Below, piece after piece: positions 497 through 7,640 of a DNA stretch of 14,707 nt. Source of the stretch: Promethearchaeota archaeon (lineage in GTDB: Archaea; Asgardarchaeota; Odinarchaeia; Odinarchaeales; JBHLKK01); NCBI GenBank assembly GCA_048939465.1, contig JBHLPL010000044.1, positions 1-14,707 on the forward strand, given 5' to 3'. Each line of letters starts with the position of its first letter. The stretch's first letter is position 1. The notes below the pieces were generated by a model that did not search any database, was not told where the DNA came from, and saw only the letters and a list, made by a program, of their open reading frames with translations. Made by a program: the position numbers and the translations under genes.

Positions 497-604
497 GGGC
501 CCGTGGCCTAGCCAGGATAGGGCACTGGCCTCCTAAGCCAGTAGATCTACTTAGAATCTCTAAGTGGGGCTGATTCGCCGGTTCAAATCCGGCCGGGCCC
601 GCCA
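497..604 (+). tRNA. trnR-CCT: tRNA-Arg(CCT) with a 30-nt intron at 46/47 (545-574)
   Basis: Acceptor GGGCCCG/CGGGCCC, anticodon arm CTGGC-CTCCTAA-GCCAG, T arm GCCGG-TTCAAAT-CCGGC, encoded CCA. BHB: central helix CAGT/GCTG, bulges AG|A and AT|T, intron stem TCTACTTAGA/TCTAAGTGGG. Mature length 78 nt. Confidence 0.93.
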
Positions 605-609
605 ACGTT

Positions 610-1296
610 TTAAATCCTTTCGAGCTTTTCCACGTGATCAGCATACCCCACATATACAATGTGGGCCAGACCCGAAAAGATACCATTCTCGATTACTCCT
701 GGGATGTTGTTCAATTCTCTTTCAAGTATTGATGGCTCATCGATCTTATTGAATTTTACATCAAGTATGAAATTACCATTATCAGTAATAACCGGCCCTA
801 GCTTTCGACTTGCGTTCCTTAGGCTTACGTTCCCTCCCATTTCCTGCATTTTTCTTTTTACGAAATTATTGGCAAATGGCAGCACTTCTACCGGAACAGG
901 AACTCCCCCTATATTCTCCGAAAGCTTGGATGAATCTACGACGATTATCAGCATTGTTGCAGCGGCACCGACAATCTTTTCCCTGGTTAAAGCCGCGCCG
1001 CCACCTTTTATCAGATTTAAAGCTCGATCCACTTCATCGGCCCCATCTATAGCAATATTCAGAGAAGGATATTCGTCCAGTGAAGTCAACGGTATCCCGT
1101 TCTCTATGAGTTGATGGGCTGCTTGATGTGAACTCGGGACTGCTGAAATGTTAATTCCGTCTCGCTTCACTCTTTCTCCTAGAAGATCAATTACGTGAGT
1201 TATTGTCGTTCCACTCCCAATTCCCACGATATCCCCTTCTTTAACATGTTTTATGGCTTCTTCTCCAGCTAATCTTTTGCCCTTCTCATTAGTCAA
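610..1296 (-). CDS. rpiA: ribose-5-phosphate isomerase A
   Basis: Motifs GIGSGTT, DGADEVD, IKGGGAALTREK, PVITDNGNFILD, IPGVIENGIF. Start chosen at TTG 1296 behind GGAGG; the ORF track extends to 1323. Confidence 0.96.
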   Translation of the reverse strand: MTNEKGKRLAGEEAIKHVKEGDIVGIGSGTTITHVIDLLGERVKRDGINISAVPSSHQAAHQLIENGIPLTSLDEYPSLNIAIDGADEVDRALNLIKGGGAALTREKIVGAAATMLIIVVDSSKLSENIGGVPVPVEVLPFANNFVKRKMQEMGGNVSLRNASRKLGPVITDNGNFILDVKFNKIDEPSILERELNNIPGVIENGIFSGLAHIVYVGYADHVEKLERI

Positions 1297-1425
1297 GTTC
1301 TCTGTCCCTCCGCAAGCGTTCATTTCTATTAAAGGAACCCTTTAAGTATGATTTACATTACAAAATATATCTATTATAAACAATTTTATATAGAGATAGG
1401 ACACAAAAGCCAAATAACCTAGGAC

Positions 1426-2004
1426 ATGAGTCTATTCAAACCGGTCTTTTCTCTTAGCGCTTTGAGGATTGAGAAGAAGATGAGTGATGAGACAATCCGC
1501 AAGAGTTGGCTTGAGAAACAAATAGAAACAGCAGCTAAGAGAGATGCTATGAGCCTTTCTCATAGATTATTTGATATTTTCTTTGGTGCTGGCTTTGTTA
1601 CTCTGTTCTTAATATACTTCCTTCTTCATTACTTTCTATCAACAGGATTTTTCACTTCAGGATTTGGAAGACCAGAATTCTTCTTATTCTTCGTTCCCGC
1701 GCTCCTCGGTTTAGGGATAACTATGATGAGAGGAATTGTTGGTCGAAAGAACGTTATACGTCCTTTTGAAGTATTTCAATTGGGTCTTAGTGCAGTTGGT
1801 GTTGCTTGGCTGTTAGCGGTTTTTCCATTTGATTTTTCTCATTTTGCTGATATTCTGCCGGCTTCCGTCCAGATCCACCTGCAGTGGTTATCCAGTGATA
1901 TTGTCAGGGTGTTTATGGTACTGATACTCATAGGGACCTCCGTTGCCACCACTTATAATGCTTTGTTATATACTAATGTGCGCCAAAAACTCTCCATGGT
2001 TTAA
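1426..2004 (+). CDS. hypothetical integral membrane protein (about 4 TM segments)
   Basis: 192-aa ORF with four hydrophobic stretches (FFGAGFVTLFLIYFLL; FFLFFVPALLGLGITMM; VFQLGLSAVGVAWLLAVF; IVRVFMVLILIGTSV). No family recognised. True start may be ATG 1480. Confidence 0.7.
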   Translation: MSLFKPVFSLSALRIEKKMSDETIRKSWLEKQIETAAKRDAMSLSHRLFDIFFGAGFVTLFLIYFLLHYFLSTGFFTSGFGRPEFFLFFVPALLGLGITMMRGIVGRKNVIRPFEVFQLGLSAVGVAWLLAVFPFDFSHFADILPASVQIHLQWLSSDIVRVFMVLILIGTSVATTYNALLYTNVRQKLSMV

Positions 2005-2067
2005 GAGAATACATTAGTATGCACATATCGAGATTTCCTGGGCTCATTCAGCATAGTTATTAGTAGC

Positions 2068-2117
2068 GCGAACTACCTCATCTTTTCCGACGGAGTCCTC
2101 TTGCGGAGAAGAAGATA
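2068..2117. repeat. copy 1 of a 50-bp dispersed hairpin repeat (copy 2 at 7414-7463)
   Basis: 41/50 identity to copy 2 (31/34 over the core TTTCCGAYGGAGTCYTCTTKCGGAGAAGAAGATA). Internal stem TCTTTTCCG/CGGAGAAGA. Confidence 0.8.
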
Positions 2118-2156
2118 GGCTTTTGCAGAAGTAGAACGTTGTCATAATCTTACGGG

Positions 2157-2250
2157 TGGAGCCTCGGAAGGGATTTGAACCCTCGACCAACGGCTAAATG
2201 GTGATCTTGCACTACCATGCCGCCGCTCCACCGGGCTGAGCTACCGAGGC
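2157..2250 (-). tRNA. trnT-GGT: tRNA-Thr(GGT) with a canonical 17-nt 37/38 intron (2196-2212)
   Basis: Reverse complement GCCTCGG...CCGAGGC-T-CCA (U73 fits Thr). Anticodon arm GCGGC-ATGGTA|A-GCCGT. BHB helix ATGG/CCAT, bulges TA|G and TT|A. Mature length 77 nt. Confidence 0.93.
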
Positions 2251-2282
2251 TCTGTGTATTTGTAATTTCCAGTTTCCGATGT

Positions 2283-2288
2283 TTTAAA
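2283..2288 (-). promoter_or_regulatory. putative TATA box of tRNA-Thr(GGT)
   Basis: AAAAGA-TTTAAA on the minus strand about 33-38 nt upstream of tRNA position 1; similar boxes precede tRNA-Met and tRNA-Pro. Confidence 0.5.
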
Positions 2289-2420
2289 TCTTTTGCTATT
2301 TCAAGAACTGCTTAGAATGGGTTCGATAAAACCGATAAGAAAACGATATTGTAAATTCTCAAGAGACGGAAACACTACACTGGCTGGCAAATCCTGATTG
2401 ACTGAACATTTGGGTTCCAA

Positions 2421-2948
2421 TTACTTATGTTGCCTTTGTTTGAGGTACTCTTCTTTTAATATATCAAACGCAACACTGTCGTAGTATTTCCCGGCACGCA
2501 TACCTACTCCTCGCTCTCTACCTGCGCCCCTCATACCGTATTCTTTTACTATATCGATAAGCCAACTATTCCATGAAGGTATCCAGACGGATGCACTGTT
2601 TTTTGCGTCAAATTCCATAAACAAGTAAGACAGAGCTAGGTCAATAGCCTCTATAACTGCTTTCTTGTGTTCTTCGTTATGATTTGGAATTAGGAGATTT
2701 ATTCCACTGTAGCTGGTATAAATTATAATCATCCCCAGAAGCTTTGATCTGTCCTTTTTCTCGATGAGCATCCTAACTTCATGACTCTGCTTTGACCAAT
2801 CTTTATATTTTTTCTCCATCTGGGGAACAGTCAAAGGTAATAATATGCCGTCAGTGCCTCTCAGCTTTGGATTGCTGTACCAAGTTCGTATTGTCTCAAG
2901 GTCAGATTGTTCAACTATTCTCAGATGTATTGTTTCTCCCTTAATCAT
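2421..2948 (-). CDS. GNAT (RimJ/RimL-like) family protein with degenerate acetyl-CoA motif
   Basis: MIKGETIHLRIVEQSDL..., ending G.YYDSVAFDILKEEY. Clear paralog of the upstream GNAT and overlaps its stop by 8 nt. Confidence 0.82.
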   Translation of the reverse strand: MIKGETIHLRIVEQSDLETIRTWYSNPKLRGTDGILLPLTVPQMEKKYKDWSKQSHEVRMLIEKKDRSKLLGMIIIYTSYSGINLLIPNHNEEHKKAVIEAIDLALSYLFMEFDAKNSASVWIPSWNSWLIDIVKEYGMRGAGRERGVGMRAGKYYDSVAFDILKEEYLKQRQHK

Positions 2949-3477
2949 TGTGATACATCTCCAAGTACTCCTCTCTTAGCATATCGTAGCAGAGTGCATC
3001 CTGCCACTCTCCATCTCTCATAAACCCTTTCCGTATCCTTACAGCCAGTTTAAATCCGAGAGACTCTGAAAGTTTTTGAGCAGATATATTCCAACCGCCG
3101 GTCCATAGTGATAATTTATGGAAATTCTCTTCAAGAAAACAGATTCCTAATAATAGTTGAATCGCTTCAGTCCCATATCCTCCTCTTCGGAACTTCTCTT
3201 CACCAATTACAATACCAATCTCTGCTGAGTTGAAATCTCCAATTTGATAACTCACTGAGCCAATTAACTCTCCAGTTTTCTTTAAGACTATGGACAATCT
3301 ACGTTTTTTGTCATCGGATGTGTTCATGAATCTTTCCTGCTCGAAACGCTCAGCAGACATCGGGCTGTACCCACCAATCCACACTCCTCTCATATCATAG
3401 TCGTTATACCATTCTCGGATTTTAGATAAATCGTCTATCTCTATAGCTCGTAGGAATACCCTTTCACCTTCAAGCAA
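2941..3477 (-). CDS. GNAT (RimJ/RimL-like) N-acetyltransferase
   Basis: LEGERVFLRAIEIDDL, AEIGIVIGEEKFRRGGYGTEA (motif A), N.SAQKLSESLGFKL, GEWQDALCYDMLREE. Start taken as TTG 3477 behind GGTGA; the ORF track gives 3489. Confidence 0.9.
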   Translation of the reverse strand: MLEGERVFLRAIEIDDLSKIREWYNDYDMRGVWIGGYSPMSAERFEQERFMNTSDDKKRRLSIVLKKTGELIGSVSYQIGDFNSAEIGIVIGEEKFRRGGYGTEAIQLLLGICFLEENFHKLSLWTGGWNISAQKLSESLGFKLAVRIRKGFMRDGEWQDALCYDMLREEYLEMYHND

Positions 3478-3714
3478 GTAAATCACCAAACAAAATACAT
3501 TAACTAATAGATTATGTAGGCTAGCTATTTAATTTGTATCGTTCAGTCAAATTTCGCCAGCATGCCAAGAACAGAACAATTTGACCTTGTTAAAATATGA
3601 GGTTCAAGAATTGGAATTAACACAGACTAATTTAAAAAAGTAAATCTTGCTCTATAAAACCCAAAAAACCACATCGTATCGAGTCAAGGAATATCAACAT
3701 CTCCGGATTTTTCC

Positions 3715-4065
3715 CTATTGGATGTTGACCCTCTCGATCAGATGTGGACGTTTTAGCGGTATGATTATGTTCAGCCGGCCATTTTCAAACTTGGCCTCTG
3801 CTCTATTGGCATCTACCGGGGGAATCAGAGAGTAGCATCCTCCAAGATCTAAATCGTCTCTGGATCCTTTTATCCAAAGGCCCTGCTCAGAGACCTCCAA
3901 ATCTATATCTTCTCTCTCAACTCTGGGTAGCTCGACTTGAATGTAATAATTCATACTATCGTGATCCATAAGTACTGTAGGATTAATTATCGATTTGTAA
4001 CAGCTTTGACTGTCATTATTAATGCAAGTTGTTGAATCTACCTCACACTTTGATTCTCCAGACAA
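3715..4065 (-). CDS. small heat shock protein (Hsp20/alpha-crystallin domain)
   Basis: YYIQVELPRVEREDIDLEV...VDANRAEAKFENGRLNIIIPLK. TTG start behind GGAGGTG. Confidence 0.85.
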   Translation of the reverse strand: MSGESKCEVDSTTCINNDSQSCYKSIINPTVLMDHDSMNYYIQVELPRVEREDIDLEVSEQGLWIKGSRDDLDLGGCYSLIPPVDANRAEAKFENGRLNIIIPLKRPHLIERVNIQ

Positions 4066-4199
4066 TATAACACCTCCTACAGTTAGTAAATCCGGAAATA
4101 TAAAAACTACAATAATGAAAAACAGAATTCAATTTTGAACTGAGATTCCTTTGCCGAGTAAGTCTTATTAGGAAAAAAAGGCTCAATAGCCTCTAGAGT

Positions 4200-4365
4200 G
4201 CGAGGGTACCCAAGCTAGGTCAAAGGGGCGGGTACAGTTGATATAACTGTCGCTAAACTTAAGATCCCGTAGCGTAGAAAGCTACTAGATATCCTAGGCT
4301 TGTGAAAGCTTTCGAGGGTTCGAATTGATAGGTTTCTCATCACGAAAATCCCTCCCCTCGCACCA
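4200..4365 (+). tRNA. trnL-TAA: tRNA-Leu(TAA) with three introns: 30/31 (4233-4256), variable arm (4278-4307), 59/60 (4325-4348)
   Basis: Acceptor GCGAGGG/CCCTCGC-A-CCA. Removing 24+30+24 nt gives an 88-nt tRNA with CGGGA-CTTAAGA-TCCCG, variable arm AGC-GTAG-GCT and GAGGG-TTCGAAT-CCCTC. BHB helices GGCG/CGCT and TTCG/CGAA are clean; the variable-arm helix is relaxed. Confidence 0.88.
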
Positions 4366-4454
4366 CTTCTGGCCTTTTTCTAGAGAAAGATTATTCTAGC
4401 ACAAAATTTCTTATTTGTATGCCACTCATCTGTTTTCATCTGAGGGATCCAACC

Positions 4455-5588
4455 ATGTCCGGATATAAGGTAACTCCCTGGGAAGTTGAAGGAGTAGTCG
4501 ATTATGATAAGCTTACTGAAGAGTTTGGAACACAGAAAATCGACCAAGACTTGCTTCAAAGAATAAGCAAGCTTACGGGCGAAGTTCACTTATACCTTAG
4601 AAGAGGATTCTTCTTTTCTCATAGAGATCTAGACAAGGCGTTGGACGCTTACGAGTCTGGGAGTGGATTCTTCCTGTACACAGGGCGAGGTCCCACTGGC
4701 GATATGCATCTCGGTCACCTAATTCCCTTTCTATTCTGCAAATGGCTTCAAGACAAATTCCAAGCAAACCTGTACGTACAGATAACAGATGATGAAAAAT
4801 TCCTTCATAAGAAACCCCTATCTTTGCGTAGGACCCGGAAGTATTCCTATGAAAACATTTTAGACATAATTGCCTGTGGTCTTAATCCCGACAAGACTTT
4901 CATTTTTCAAGACAGTGAGTATACAAATATCTACCCTCTTGCCACAAAAATCGCAAAACGGATAACCTTTTCTACTGCCAAGGCAGTGTTCGGTTTTACG
5001 AGTCAGACTAATATTGGTATGATCTTCTTTCCAGCAATTCAAGCTGTACCATGTTTCCTTGAAAAGAAACAATGTCTAATTCCTGCTGCCATTGATCAAG
5101 ATCCTTATTGGCGAATACAAAGAGATGTGGCGCCAAAGCTTGGTTATAAGAAAACTGCTGCAATACATAGTAAATTCGTGCCCAGTCTAGAAGGTCCAAA
5201 GGGTAAGATGAGTGCCAGTAAGAAAGAGACCGCAATCTATCTGACTGATACGCCCAAAGATGTGAGAATGAAAATACAAAAACATGCTTTCACTGGAGGT
5301 CAGCCTACTGTAAAGGAACAAAAGGAAAAAGGAGGAAATCCGGACATATGTACTGTCCAACAATGGCTTTCGATATTCATAGAACCTGATGATGAGGCCG
5401 TAAAAGAACAGTATATACGCTGCAAACAAGGGACGCTTCTCTGTGGAGAACACAAGGAACTACTCGCAGAGAAGCTAAGTGCTTTTCTGAATGGACACCA
5501 AAGGCGACGGGAGGACGCCAGAGAATTGGTTGAGACGTTTAAGCATGAAGGAAAATTGGCTCAGACGATGTGGGTCAAGAAGTGGTAG
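4455..5588 (+). CDS. trpS: tryptophanyl-tRNA synthetase (archaeal/eukaryal type)
   Basis: VTPWEVEG, LYTGRGP, HLGH (HIGH), ITDDEKFL, CLIPAAIDQDPYWR, KMSAS (KMSKS), HAFTGGQ. Start at ATG 4455; the ORF track gives 4419. Confidence 0.97.
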   Translation: MSGYKVTPWEVEGVVDYDKLTEEFGTQKIDQDLLQRISKLTGEVHLYLRRGFFFSHRDLDKALDAYESGSGFFLYTGRGPTGDMHLGHLIPFLFCKWLQDKFQANLYVQITDDEKFLHKKPLSLRRTRKYSYENILDIIACGLNPDKTFIFQDSEYTNIYPLATKIAKRITFSTAKAVFGFTSQTNIGMIFFPAIQAVPCFLEKKQCLIPAAIDQDPYWRIQRDVAPKLGYKKTAAIHSKFVPSLEGPKGKMSASKKETAIYLTDTPKDVRMKIQKHAFTGGQPTVKEQKEKGGNPDICTVQQWLSIFIEPDDEAVKEQYIRCKQGTLLCGEHKELLAEKLSAFLNGHQRRREDARELVETFKHEGKLAQTMWVKKW

Positions 5589-5602
5589 ACTAAGGCAACA
5601 AG

Positions 5603-5612
5603 TTTTTTAAAT
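5603..5612 (+). promoter_or_regulatory. putative TATA box of tRNA-Met
   Basis: TTTTTTAAAT 26-35 nt upstream of tRNA position 1. Confidence 0.5.
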
Positions 5613-5637
5613 TATGAATAAGTGATAGTATAGGCGC

Positions 5638-5824
5638 GCCGAGGTGGCTCAGCCTGGTTAGAGCGCCGGACTAAGAACGGGCGATACTCATAATCTTAGA
5701 AGAATCGGGGTTCAGATGAGCCATCCGGAAACGGATGGTACAGAGGGATCATGCGCCTGAAGTCGCGGGTTCGAATCGTCCTGAGAACTCTTCTCTTGGC
5801 GAGACAGGCCCGCCCTCGGCACCA
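5638..5824 (+). tRNA. trnM-CAT: elongator tRNA-Met(CAT) with four putative introns: 30/31 (5670-5685), 37/38 (5693-5722), 45/46 (5731-5761), T-loop 59/60 or 60/61 (about 5776-5807)
   Basis: Acceptor GCCGAGG/CCTCGGC-A-CCA (GCC start fits elongator Met, not initiator or Ile2). Removing 16+30+31+32 nt from 187 nt gives a 78-nt cloverleaf: CCGGA-CTCATAA-TCCGG, AAGTC, GCGGG-TTCGAAN-CCCGC. Confidence 0.85.
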
Positions 5825-5916
5825 ATTACCACTTCTTCTAATCAAATATTTTATATTTGTTAAATATTTAATATGCTCATGTCCAAGAGAGTCTCAAAAA
5901 TTTGGGGTGTCGGGCA

Positions 5917-7161
5917 ATGGGCTATACGTTCTTGACACTCGACGATGTAAACGTTTCTGGCAGAAGTGTCCTAGTTAGAGTAGACATTAACTCTCCGATT
6001 AGTCCCAGAAATGGAAAGATTCTGGACATCTCTCGAATGAGAGCAATACAAGACACACTTAATGATTTGAAACCTGCAAGAGTTGTGCTTCTGGCGCATC
6101 AGAGTCGACCCGGCAAAAGTGATTTCACAACGCTTAGGCCGCATGCTAAGGTCCTCAGGACGCTTACAGGCGGTCGTGTAAGGTTTGTTGAGGATATCTT
6201 TGGACCTACGGCAAGAGATGCGATTAAATCGACCAACATCGGTGAAATCTTACTTCTGGAAAATGTTCGTTTCTATTCCGAGGAGAATATAGAGGTTCCG
6301 CCAGAAAACTTGGTCAAGACTCACTTGGTTAGGATACTGTCTCCGTATTTCGATTTGTTTGTAAATGATGCATTTCCTGCCGCGCATAGGTCTCATCCAT
6401 CGTTGGTGGGATTTGCAGAGGTTTTGCCGACAGTAGCAGGACGTGTTATGGAACGTGAGTTGAACGCCCTAAACAAGAGTCTGAATCCAGATAGACCCTG
6501 TGCTTTTGTTATTGGTGGAAGTAAGGTCTATACAAAACTTAAGATCATCGAAAACATATTGAAGAATGGTAAGGCTGATAAAATCCTTGTTGGAGGCCTT
6601 TTGACACACATCTTCCTTCAAGCTGTTGGCAGAGATATTGGCAAGGTCAATGAGAAAGCTGTGGCAGAATACGGAAAACTCTTGGACCACGCTAAAAAGC
6701 TTATTAAAAAGCATGAGTCTGTAATAGAAATCCCTACAGATGTTGGCATTGACAAGGATGACGAAAGAATTAATATTTCCACCGACGAGCTACCGTCAGA
6801 TCACCAGATCTTGGATGTCGGTCCAAACACGGTTGATAAATATATAGATATCATTAACGCTTCTCAAACTGTTGTTGCAAACGGACCTTTGGGCGTTTTT
6901 GAAAGAAACGATTTTGCCTTCGGAACCAAGAAGATAGTTGAAGCCATGGCTACACACAATGAAACTACTATTGTTGGCGGGGGCGAATTAGGGGCTCTTA
7001 TCTACACTCTTGGGCTTGACAGTAAACTGAGTCATGTGAGTACAGGTGGCGGTGCAACAATATCTCTGCTCTCTGGTGAGCAATTGCCGGTGATTGCCGC
7101 TCTAGAACGTGCGTCCAAAAGATTCCGACAAGCAACCCGCAAAAAACTTAAAAAAACTTAA
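5917..7161 (+). CDS. pgk: phosphoglycerate kinase (archaeal type)
   Basis: LVRVDINSP, LAHQSRPG, LLENVRF, FVNDAFPAAHRSHPS, GGSKV, VANGPLGVFE, HVSTGGGA. Start at ATG 5917. Confidence 0.97.
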   Translation: MGYTFLTLDDVNVSGRSVLVRVDINSPISPRNGKILDISRMRAIQDTLNDLKPARVVLLAHQSRPGKSDFTTLRPHAKVLRTLTGGRVRFVEDIFGPTARDAIKSTNIGEILLLENVRFYSEENIEVPPENLVKTHLVRILSPYFDLFVNDAFPAAHRSHPSLVGFAEVLPTVAGRVMERELNALNKSLNPDRPCAFVIGGSKVYTKLKIIENILKNGKADKILVGGLLTHIFLQAVGRDIGKVNEKAVAEYGKLLDHAKKLIKKHESVIEIPTDVGIDKDDERINISTDELPSDHQILDVGPNTVDKYIDIINASQTVVANGPLGVFERNDFAFGTKKIVEAMATHNETTIVGGGELGALIYTLGLDSKLSHVSTGGGATISLLSGEQLPVIAALERASKRFRQATRKKLKKT

Positions 7162-7219
7162 TGTACCTTCTTATTCAATATCTTGATGAGAACAGCTAGG
7201 TCATATCCATCAATGGAGA

Positions 7220-7351
7220 GCCCCGGTGGCTTAGCCCGGTAGAGCAGCGGACTTGTAGGTCACGTTAGGCTTGGCTAAGAAATCCGCCGATTAGTGGTAA
7301 TTTACCATCATTAAGCGGAAGTCAAGGGTTCAAATCCCTTCCGGGGCTCCA
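7220..7351 (+). tRNA. trnT-TGT: tRNA-Thr(TGT) with two introns: 37/38 (7258-7281) and 45/46 (7290-7320)
   Basis: GCCCCGG/CCGGGGC-T-CCA. Anticodon arm GCGGA-CTTGTA|A-TCCGC. BHB helices CTTG/TAAG and CCGC/GCGG. Mature length 77 nt. Confidence 0.92.
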
Positions 7352-7413
7352 TCATTTGGAAAATCGGATTTTTATGCACCTTACATGGATCTTCATTGAA
7401 AAGGATCTTGCCG

Positions 7414-7463
7414 GTGAACTACGCCACTATTTCCGATGGAGTCTTCTTTCGGAGAAGAAGATA
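7414..7463. repeat. copy 2 of the 50-bp dispersed hairpin repeat
   Basis: 41/50 identical to 2068-2117, same orientation on the + strand. Stem TTTCCGA/TCGGAGA. Confidence 0.8.
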
Positions 7464-7466
7464 AAG

Positions 7467-7474
7467 TTTTAAAT
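7467..7474 (+). promoter_or_regulatory. putative TATA box of tRNA-Pro
   Basis: AAAG-TTTTAAAT 29-36 nt upstream of tRNA position 1. Confidence 0.5.
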
Positions 7475-7502
7475 TTGGATTACATCCAGTAGATTACCAA
7501 GT

Positions 7503-7640
7503 GGGGCGGTGGTCTAGCTTGGTATGATACAAGATTTGGGAGTGTCTCACATAACGTGTGATGCCGGCAAATCTTGTGGTCAGGAGTTCGAATCGAAAGG
7601 GCGTTACTACTTTTTCGAGGAATTCTCCTCCGCCCCACCA
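7503..7640 (+). tRNA. trnP-TGG: tRNA-Pro(TGG) with two introns: 37/38 (7541-7570) and 59/60 (7593-7623)
   Basis: GGGGCGG/CCGCCCC-A-CCA. Anticodon arm CAAGA-TTTGGG|A-TCTTG, T arm AGGAG/CTCCT. Both introns have good hairpins and relaxed (3 of 4 pairs) central helices. Mature length 77 nt. Confidence 0.9.

Follow-up and report, generated by a model that had tools for sequence, protein, structure and literature searches.

The 14,707-nt window analysed here (contig JBHLPL010000044.1 of Promethearchaeota archaeon, class Odinarchaeia, a class with seven reference species; contig C88 of a 1.96-Mb metagenome-assembled genome, MAG) carries an elongator tRNA-Met(CAU) gene at positions 5638-5824 of the plus strand. 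The gene encodes its CCA end and is interrupted by four introns, which lie at positions 30/31, 37/38 and 45/46 and in the T-loop. The splice motifs of the three anticodon-arm introns overlap, and we hold it to be rather probable that this overlap dictates a sequential removal in the order 30/31, 45/46, 37/38, with a GAAA hairpin as an extra competitor, with the T-loop intron processed independently, and with a short complementarity between introns 3 and 4 that is due to chance. The gene model, the motif overlaps, the hairpin and its conservation within the genus are shown by the sequences and their folds, while the splicing order and all effect sizes given below are predictions that come from nearest-neighbour modelling only.

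Intron boundaries were assigned with a bulge-helix-bulge (BHB) criterion, i.e. two 3-nt bulges flanking a 4-bp helix, with the cut after the second bulge base. The rule derived from it (outer helix, 4-nt central helix and bulge NN^N, followed downstream by the 4-nt partner, the second bulge NN^N and the outer helix; the caret marks the cut) was checked on the canonical introns of tRNA-Pro (2160-2250) and tRNA-Thr (7220-7348), both located in the same window. Hereby, introns 1 and 2 show strict motifs with 4/4 central pairs plus flanking helices, intron 3 shows a relaxed motif (3/4 central pairs plus a 7/8 inner helix) and intron 4 is without an in-register motif (2/4 pairs). The 16-nt intron 1 (5670-5685, 30/31) is defined by the central helix CGCC (5664-5667)/GGCG (5680-5683), the bulges GG^A and AU^A and the outer helix GAG (5661-5663)/CUC (5687-5689). 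Intron 2 (5693-5722, 30 nt) occupies the canonical position 37/38; it is framed by the central helix CUCA (5687-5690)/UGAG (5717-5720) and the bulges UA^A and CC^A, with UCU/AGA as inner helix and the anticodon stem as outer helix. For intron 3 (5731-5761, 31 nt, 45/46), the central helix CCGG (5725-5728)/CCUG (5756-5759) contains a C41.U5758 mismatch, the bulges read AA^A and AA^G, and the inner helix CGGAUGGU (5732-5739)/AUCAUGCG (5748-5755) forms seven of its eight pairs. Intron 4 is placed in the T-loop at about 5776-5807. Between the introns lie micro-exons of 7, 8 and 14 nt. The first of them, ACUCAUA (5686-5692, A31-A37), contains the anticodon; its limits follow from the boundaries of introns 1 and 2 and were checked via the spliced product. 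The second, AUCCGGAA (5723-5730, A38-A45), is bounded by the motifs of introns 2 and 3, and the third (5762-5775, G46-A59; 14 nt under the 59/60 model) comprises the T-stem strand GCGGG plus UUCGAA.

The gene model is corroborated by the spliced product and by related sequences. In its unspliced form the gene was missed by both ARAGORN and the Rfam tRNA model in scans of the window, although a complementary acceptor stem, a D arm, the anticodon-arm pieces CCGG..ACUCAUA..AUCCGG, a T arm and the CCA end are all present. ARAGORN recognises the spliced sequence as tRNA-Met(cat) of 78 nt with CCA under all three T-loop models, and the acceptor, D, anticodon and T stems of this product are complementary throughout. 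An Odinarchaeia contig that lacks intron 3 (L096) reads ...AUCCGG AAGUC GCGGG, which matches the predicted junction and thus confirms the 45/46 boundary. Two more species of the window's genus (L084/L091 and L090) were recovered via the neighbouring genes for tryptophanyl-tRNA synthetase (TrpRS) and phosphoglycerate kinase (PGK). Among the three species, changes are found at 0-1 of the 77 exon positions, the flanking spacers diverge by 8-33%, and introns 1 to 4 differ at 3/16, 4/30, 1/31 and 5/33 positions; the variants are also carried by strain contigs from independent studies. Conserved exons, together with variants in independent contigs, imply that the gene is real and under selection and that the odd T-loop junction described below is no assembly error. 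DNA of the locus occurs in mangrove and sediment metagenomes. A search of the MAG for a second elongator tRNA-Met by anticodon-loop pattern returned noise only, and in the MAG, which is 91% complete, the gene is presumably single-copy. As a side observation on gene finding, the Rfam tRNA model reports just 24 tRNA genes in the whole MAG, and ARAGORN finds one of at least six in the interval 497-7640 of the window.

Marck and Grosjean (2003) and Sugahara et al. (2007) reportedly noted that non-canonical introns need alternative precursor folds. In the tRNA-Met precursor, C27-C28 and C32-C34 are used by the motifs of introns 1 and 2 alike, and C40-G43 belong both to the outer helix of intron 2 and to the central helix of intron 3. 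Because the three anticodon-arm motifs have these nucleotides in common, only one of them can form at a time, and splicing must thus be sequential. The free-energy cost of forcing each motif was computed for every one of the 15 partially spliced forms, both at 25 °C and at 37 °C. At 37 °C, the intron 1 motif is cheap whichever other introns remain (1.4-2.6 kcal/mol). Intron 2 costs 10.6-11.5 kcal/mol with intron 3 present, 8.4-9.0 kcal/mol with intron 3 gone and intron 1 still in place, and 4.0-4.2 kcal/mol once introns 1 and 3 are both gone. Intron 3 costs 6.7-7.4 kcal/mol before the anticodon stem can form and 8.5-9.0 kcal/mol after, and intron 4 costs 11.0-11.5 kcal/mol in all states, independent of the other introns. 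In the mechanism suggested by these values, a protein splicing endonuclease would cut each intron at its BHB motif, the 30/31 intron would leave first, the 45/46 intron second and the 37/38 intron last, and the T-loop intron would be processed independently. An earlier reading of this DNA, termed here the original prediction, had proposed that the precursor adopts alternative states which impose a removal order. The partition function, run on each partially spliced intermediate, indeed yields mutually exclusive folds and the order intron 1, intron 3, intron 2, so that this part of the proposal is borne out; according to the modelling, however, the order would stem mainly from the overlap of the splice motifs and not from special inter-intron helices, and the helix postulated between introns 3 and 4 lacks thermodynamic, statistical and topological support. 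The inter-intron "checkpoint", which finds no support in these results, likewise would be a product of modelling that extends known principles and adds no new one.

In addition to the three motifs, the precursor contains a fourth competitor. The hairpin CCAUCCG-GAAA-CGGAUGG (5721-5738) has a perfect 7-bp stem closed by a GNRA loop and spans the last 2 nt of intron 2, the 8-nt exon A38-A45 and the first 8 nt of intron 3, as had been predicted. Its stability amounts to -11.5 kcal/mol at 37 °C. It is part of both the minimum-free-energy and the centroid fold of the precursor, with a pairing probability of 0.98-0.99 as long as no intron has been removed and of 0.97-0.99 in every form that retains introns 2 and 3. 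The proposed masking of the exon strand of the intron 3 motif and of the anticodon stem is correct: the hairpin pairs U39-G42 of the anticodon stem, bases that the intron 2 motif needs for its outer helix and the intron 3 motif for its central helix. The masking goes further than had been claimed, as the hairpin also pairs the bases of the CC^A bulge, in which the 3' splice site of intron 2 lies, and draws CGGAUGG away from the inner helix of intron 3, whose 5' arm it would otherwise form. In the model, the hairpin would make the intron 2 motif costlier by about 6 kcal/mol and reduce the intron 3 motif to a minor conformer, and it would thereby delay the removal of both introns. When CC5721-22 is mutated to AU in silico, the intron 2 motif costs 5.0 instead of 11.1 kcal/mol. 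The change G5734C breaks the hairpin and at the same time repairs a G.G mismatch in the inner helix; with it, the cost of the intron 3 motif falls from 7.4 to 2.1 kcal/mol.

The tRNA-Thr(UGU) gene of the same window (7220-7348) has introns at 37/38 and 45/46 and no strong exon-intron hairpin. Here, too, C40-G43 serve as the central helix of the 45/46 intron and block the canonical motif until that intron is gone: the canonical motif costs 10.7 kcal/mol before and 4.9 kcal/mol after its removal. Since tRNA-Thr has the same block without a hairpin, the order appears to be a general outcome of a 45/46 intron that uses the anticodon-stem strand. The two genes differ in that the 45/46 motif of tRNA-Thr is perfect (4/4 central pairs, an 8-bp inner helix, a cost of 1.7 kcal/mol), whereas that of tRNA-Met contains two mismatches and has the hairpin as ground state. 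The 45/46 introns of tRNA-Met (5731-5761) and tRNA-Thr (7266-7296) are both 31 nt long and identical at 15 of 31 positions without gaps (P 0.003), and on the basis of this similarity they are probably homologous. Two compensatory double changes preserve the inner helix in both introns, an argument that the BHB fold is the functional one. A scan of 400 genomes of the phylum returned no other relatives of intron 3.

Does the hairpin exist because it is useful? Rather than a tolerated by-product, one could regard it as a timing device kept by selection, which locks intron 2 at its 3' splice site and intron 3 at its 5' side; if so, the 7- and 8-nt micro-exons would never be cut on both sides at once and the anticodon stem would form at the last step only. 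This view draws on the perfection of the hairpin and on its identity in three species of the genus (the window, L084/L091 and L090), whose other introns differ by 13-19%. In line with it, intron 3, with 0-1 of 31 positions changed between species, is the most conserved intron, G5734 forms a G.G mismatch in its own inner helix but is a perfect partner of C40 in the hairpin, and most of the intron 2 block is due to the bulge bases CC5721-22, by which the hairpin is lengthened. The statistical case is modest, because a perfect hairpin of at least 7 bp arises in 7% of dinucleotide shuffles of the 187-nt precursor and a 7-nt complement to the upstream 16 nt in 1.4% of shuffles of intron 3 alone, which corresponds to chance probabilities of only 0.014-0.07. 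Moreover, tRNA-Thr reaches the same order without a hairpin, and a comparable hairpin in the tRNA-Leu gene of the window (4296-4311) attains a P of merely 0.12-0.17, with the boundaries of two Leu introns off by one. Given these objections and those from the orthologs presented below, we regard a selected timing device as quite unlikely. Decidedly unlikely, too, is its stronger form, in which the hairpin would be a selected splice-site lock on the 3' bulge of the 37/38 intron and on the strand 38-42, would force the order 30/31, 45/46, 37/38 such that no micro-exon is ever freed on both sides, and would exemplify GNRA splice-site hairpins that recur in heavily interrupted Asgard tRNA genes.

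Several observations weigh against sequential splicing with the hairpin as competitor, and the first two of them count equally against a timing device. The orthologs of Odinarchaeum are without this hairpin; they contain at most a 4-bp AUCC/GGAU version in another register, with a probability of 0.6-0.7 in one species and about 0.25 in one, and none in two. In evolutionary terms the hairpin is not old. Covariation cannot be scored, because the exon arm is fixed by tRNA function: compensatory changes are lacking in the genus, where the hairpin is invariant and hence uninformative, and in Odinarchaeum the hairpin is not kept in register. The excess conservation of intron 3 is suggestive only (1/31 versus 12/79 changed positions). 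The modelled cost of intron 3 (7 kcal/mol) lies far above that of comparable introns (1.7-3.4 kcal/mol), which would mean either that the hairpin truly impedes splicing or that the intron 3 motif is incomplete. The thermodynamic model penalises bulges and leaves out the enzyme, co-transcriptional folding, other proteins and the growth temperature. Finally, the gene model is incomplete at its 3' end, where the T-loop boundaries are uncertain by 1-2 nt.

According to a further reading, the modelled folds are irrelevant in vivo: endonuclease and RNA-binding proteins would melt or bypass them, and order would exist only as far as motif overlap forbids simultaneous cutting. The genome contains two matches to the EndA domain PF01974 (103 and 77 bits), in open reading frames of 204 aa (C90:9287-9538; L100 1168-1782) and 191 aa (C139:31376-31636, minus strand; L101 1474-2049). 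One paralog shows the Tyr/His/Lys context and the other is without the catalytic His, so that the pair fits an (alpha-beta)2 enzyme of broad specificity, a subunit arrangement that we infer from these features. According to PMC5829648, (alpha-beta)2 enzymes cut relaxed motifs, and the presence of such genes speaks for this reading. In addition, all modelled motif costs are positive, with 0.1-5.5 kcal/mol for ordinary introns, and the endonuclease must therefore pay folding costs routinely. Against this stands the stability of the GC-rich hairpin, which at -11.5 kcal/mol is far more stable than the competing 3/4 and 7/8 helices, as well as the finding that the splicing order in Cyanidioschyzon merolae tracked motif stability (PMC3728597). 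On balance, irrelevance of the folds in vivo is unlikely, if with an appreciable chance of being right, and we retain sequential splicing by overlapping motifs as the preferred reading.

The original prediction further assigned a role to a pairing of GCCUG (5755-5759) at the end of intron 3 with CAGGC (5805-5809) at the end of intron 4, which was thought to couple the removal of both introns or to create a composite splice motif. The complementarity is indeed perfect, and GCCUG, which is unchanged in all variants, contains the CCUG strand of the central helix of intron 3, including U5758, the base that is mismatched with C41 in the pairing with its own exon. The description of CAGGC as the end of intron 4, however, presupposes a 61/62 boundary, for which no BHB exists; in the present model the segment covers the last nucleotides of intron 4 together with C61 of the T stem. 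By simple arithmetic, chance alone should provide about 0.7 perfect 5-mer complements between two 31-nt segments, and CAGG is also complementary to CCUG within intron 4 itself (5780-5783). Of the shuffled controls, 98% form a stronger duplex than the best one between introns 3 and 4, owing to the purine-rich composition of the former and the pyrimidine-rich composition of the latter. In every modelled intermediate the pairing has a probability of 0.0; it would cross the T stem as a pseudoknot, and the cost of the intron 4 motif is unaffected by the removal of intron 3. As an alternative state of the precursor the pairing is unsupported. The composite motif is rejected: CCUG/CAGG, flanked by the bulges AA^G and CC^C and placed at (5761, 5810), gives the correct cut between 5761 and 5762, but its second cut, between 5810 and 5811, falls inside the T-stem strand and would produce the wrong exon junction.

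In L090 and in strain contigs CAGGC is replaced by UAGGC, which converts the terminal pair G5755-C5805 of L090 into G.U and is the sole change seen in the pairing. In three Odinarchaeum species, the end of intron 3 is in a comparable way complementary over 7 bp to the middle of intron 4 (CUGACGG/CCGUCGG; duplex P 0.009-0.034). The fourth species has a mismatch there (P 0.55), and the ensemble probability of this pairing in Odinarchaeum does not exceed 0.03. We conclude that the complementarity of GCCUG and CAGGC is a chance match and that a function of the pairing in coupled removal or as a composite motif is very improbable. The possibility that intron 3 is a tandem duplicate of the exon 4/intron 4 junction, which would have accounted for these matches, was considered and is unsupported, local alignment giving P values of 0.35, 0.37, 0.62, 0.67, 0.03 and 0.24 in six sequences.

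Intron 4 is treated separately. Its boundary was assigned to 59/60 by homology with thirteen other T-loop introns of the genome and with the orthologs, which share the pattern UUCR AA^N ... H' NN^U, with the T-stem strand directly behind it. A perfect helix UUCG (5770-5773)/CGAG (5800-5803) is present, but it is shifted by 2 nt relative to the T stem and would leave a T loop of 9 nt. The partner in the proper register forms 2/4 pairs and gives G60. Hereby, the motif costs 6.4-11.4 kcal/mol, compared to 0.1-5.5 kcal/mol for the other T-loop introns of the genome. In the genus the 3' side reads GG CGAG AC A GG CCCGC, and AGG CCCGC is conserved in all three species. A nested or two-step removal of intron 4 was considered, as were boundaries at 60/61 or 61/62; a motif is absent for these, and the costs are 16-18 kcal/mol. 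Two side observations concern this intron class: in the interval 5770-5813 of the window, AGG replaces the single U60 of every other T-loop intron of the genome, and at least 13 genes of the MAG carry a 59/60 intron.

An entirely different reading takes the interval 5709-5762 as an intron-borne C/D-box guide RNA of the archaeal pre-tRNA-Trp type, with AGAUGA (5714-5719) as C box and CUGA (5757-5760) as D box. Both boxes are near consensus and the segment gives a weak match to the Rfam model sR9 (13.3 bits, E 5.1), yet this score is far under the gathering threshold of 36 bits, C' and D' boxes and a terminal stem were absent on inspection, and the second guide would comprise only 8 nt. The AUGAG element is explained by its pairing with the anticodon loop CUCAU, a feature common to tRNA-Met introns of many archaea. 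A guide RNA at this site is hence effectively refuted and hardly credible.

Orthologs of the tRNA-Met gene are present in Odin-, Atabey- and Baldr-archaeia, and the four intron positions recur in four Odinarchaeum species. Named records that carry this tRNA are Odinarchaeota/Odinarchaeia MAGs, with Atabeyarchaeia and Baldrarchaeota at greater distance. The 30/31, 37/38 and, in most cases, 59/60 introns are common to Atabey- and Baldr-archaeia with recognisably similar intron cores, and the core of intron 2, GGGGUCAGAUGAG, is found in Atabey and Odin orthologs as well. The introns at 30/31, 37/38 and 59/60 therefore look like old, common heritage rather than recent gain. Three Atabeyarchaeia sequences (L008, L072 and L078) are without introns 3 and 4, and Bathyarchaeia and others have the 37/38 intron only. 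A pattern scan of metagenomes returned orthologs of Baldr- and Atabey-archaeia only. In two reference genomes of the same genus (G001 and G002, 78% and 82% complete), neither the tRNA-Met gene nor the neighbouring PGK gene was found with the queries used.

Further observations concern these loci and their surroundings. The comparison across three classes draws on L004, L008, L009, L011, L013 and L067-L078 for Atabey- and Baldr-archaeia, with the cores GGCGAAA^CU and GGGGUCAGAUGAG. In two Atabeyarchaeia sequences (L004 and L009) the T-loop intron holds a second copy of CCAUCCGGAGAUCGCG, a segment made up of the last part of intron 2, the exon and the T-stem strand, so that a local duplication during intron growth seems likely. 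Contig JAHPYV010000014 of isolate LC30, which contains the locus L045, carries a second tRNA-Met-like 5' part (L063) with no matching 3' acceptor strand within 450 nt, and it may point to a split gene, to an interruption by a very long intron or to a gene remnant. In the genus (L084, L090), TrpRS, tRNA-Met and PGK follow one another in the same order as at 4419-7161 of the window; in Odinarchaeum a metallo-beta-lactamase-fold gene sits between TrpRS and tRNA-Met.

Heavily interrupted tRNA genes have been described for other Asgard lineages. Introns occur in 92-95% of the tRNA genes of Atabey- and Freyarchaeia, with several introns in over half of them (Valentin-Alvarado 2024, PMC11291895). A census preprint reports up to five intervening sequences per Asgard tRNA gene and finds insertions in the variable region at canonical motifs only 21% of the time (bioRxiv 10.64898/2026.10.13.758758). 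Multi-intron tRNA genes are also known from Thermoproteales (Sugahara 2008, as cited in PMC4033280). Like the tRNA-Met gene described here, these published genes are missed by standard finders and often have relaxed motifs in the variable region. The present gene differs in that it comes from Odinarchaeia, a class that is named in neither PMC11291895 nor the census preprint, and neither of the two discusses splicing order or competing folds. Odinarchaeia of this genus appear to be as intron-rich as the published Asgard classes, and the tRNA-Met gene, apart from one locally interesting feature, is an ordinary representative of a known kind.

An ordered processing of BHB motifs with the 37/38 intron last has been demonstrated by reverse transcription PCR in C. 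merolae, where the order correlates with motif stability (Soma 2013, PMC3728597; PMC9602550). The path predicted for tRNA-Met resembles this system in that several BHB motifs are present, the order would follow stability and the 37/38 intron would leave last. The two systems differ in that the C. merolae motifs fold independently and their order was shown experimentally, whereas the motifs of tRNA-Met overlap, a hairpin competes with two of them and the order is modelled.

Only recently have heavily interrupted tRNA genes been recognised as an Asgard trait, and such genes pose the question of how a four-intron precursor with exons of 7-8 nt is processed without loss of pieces. The tRNA-Met gene provides a compact experimental test case, in which order, fidelity and endonuclease tolerance are measurable with few transcripts. 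If the 45/46 introns of tRNA-Met and tRNA-Thr are homologous, they would document intron transfer between tRNA genes. Moreover, the three tRNA-Met introns that are common to three Asgard classes bear on the picture of repeated gain.

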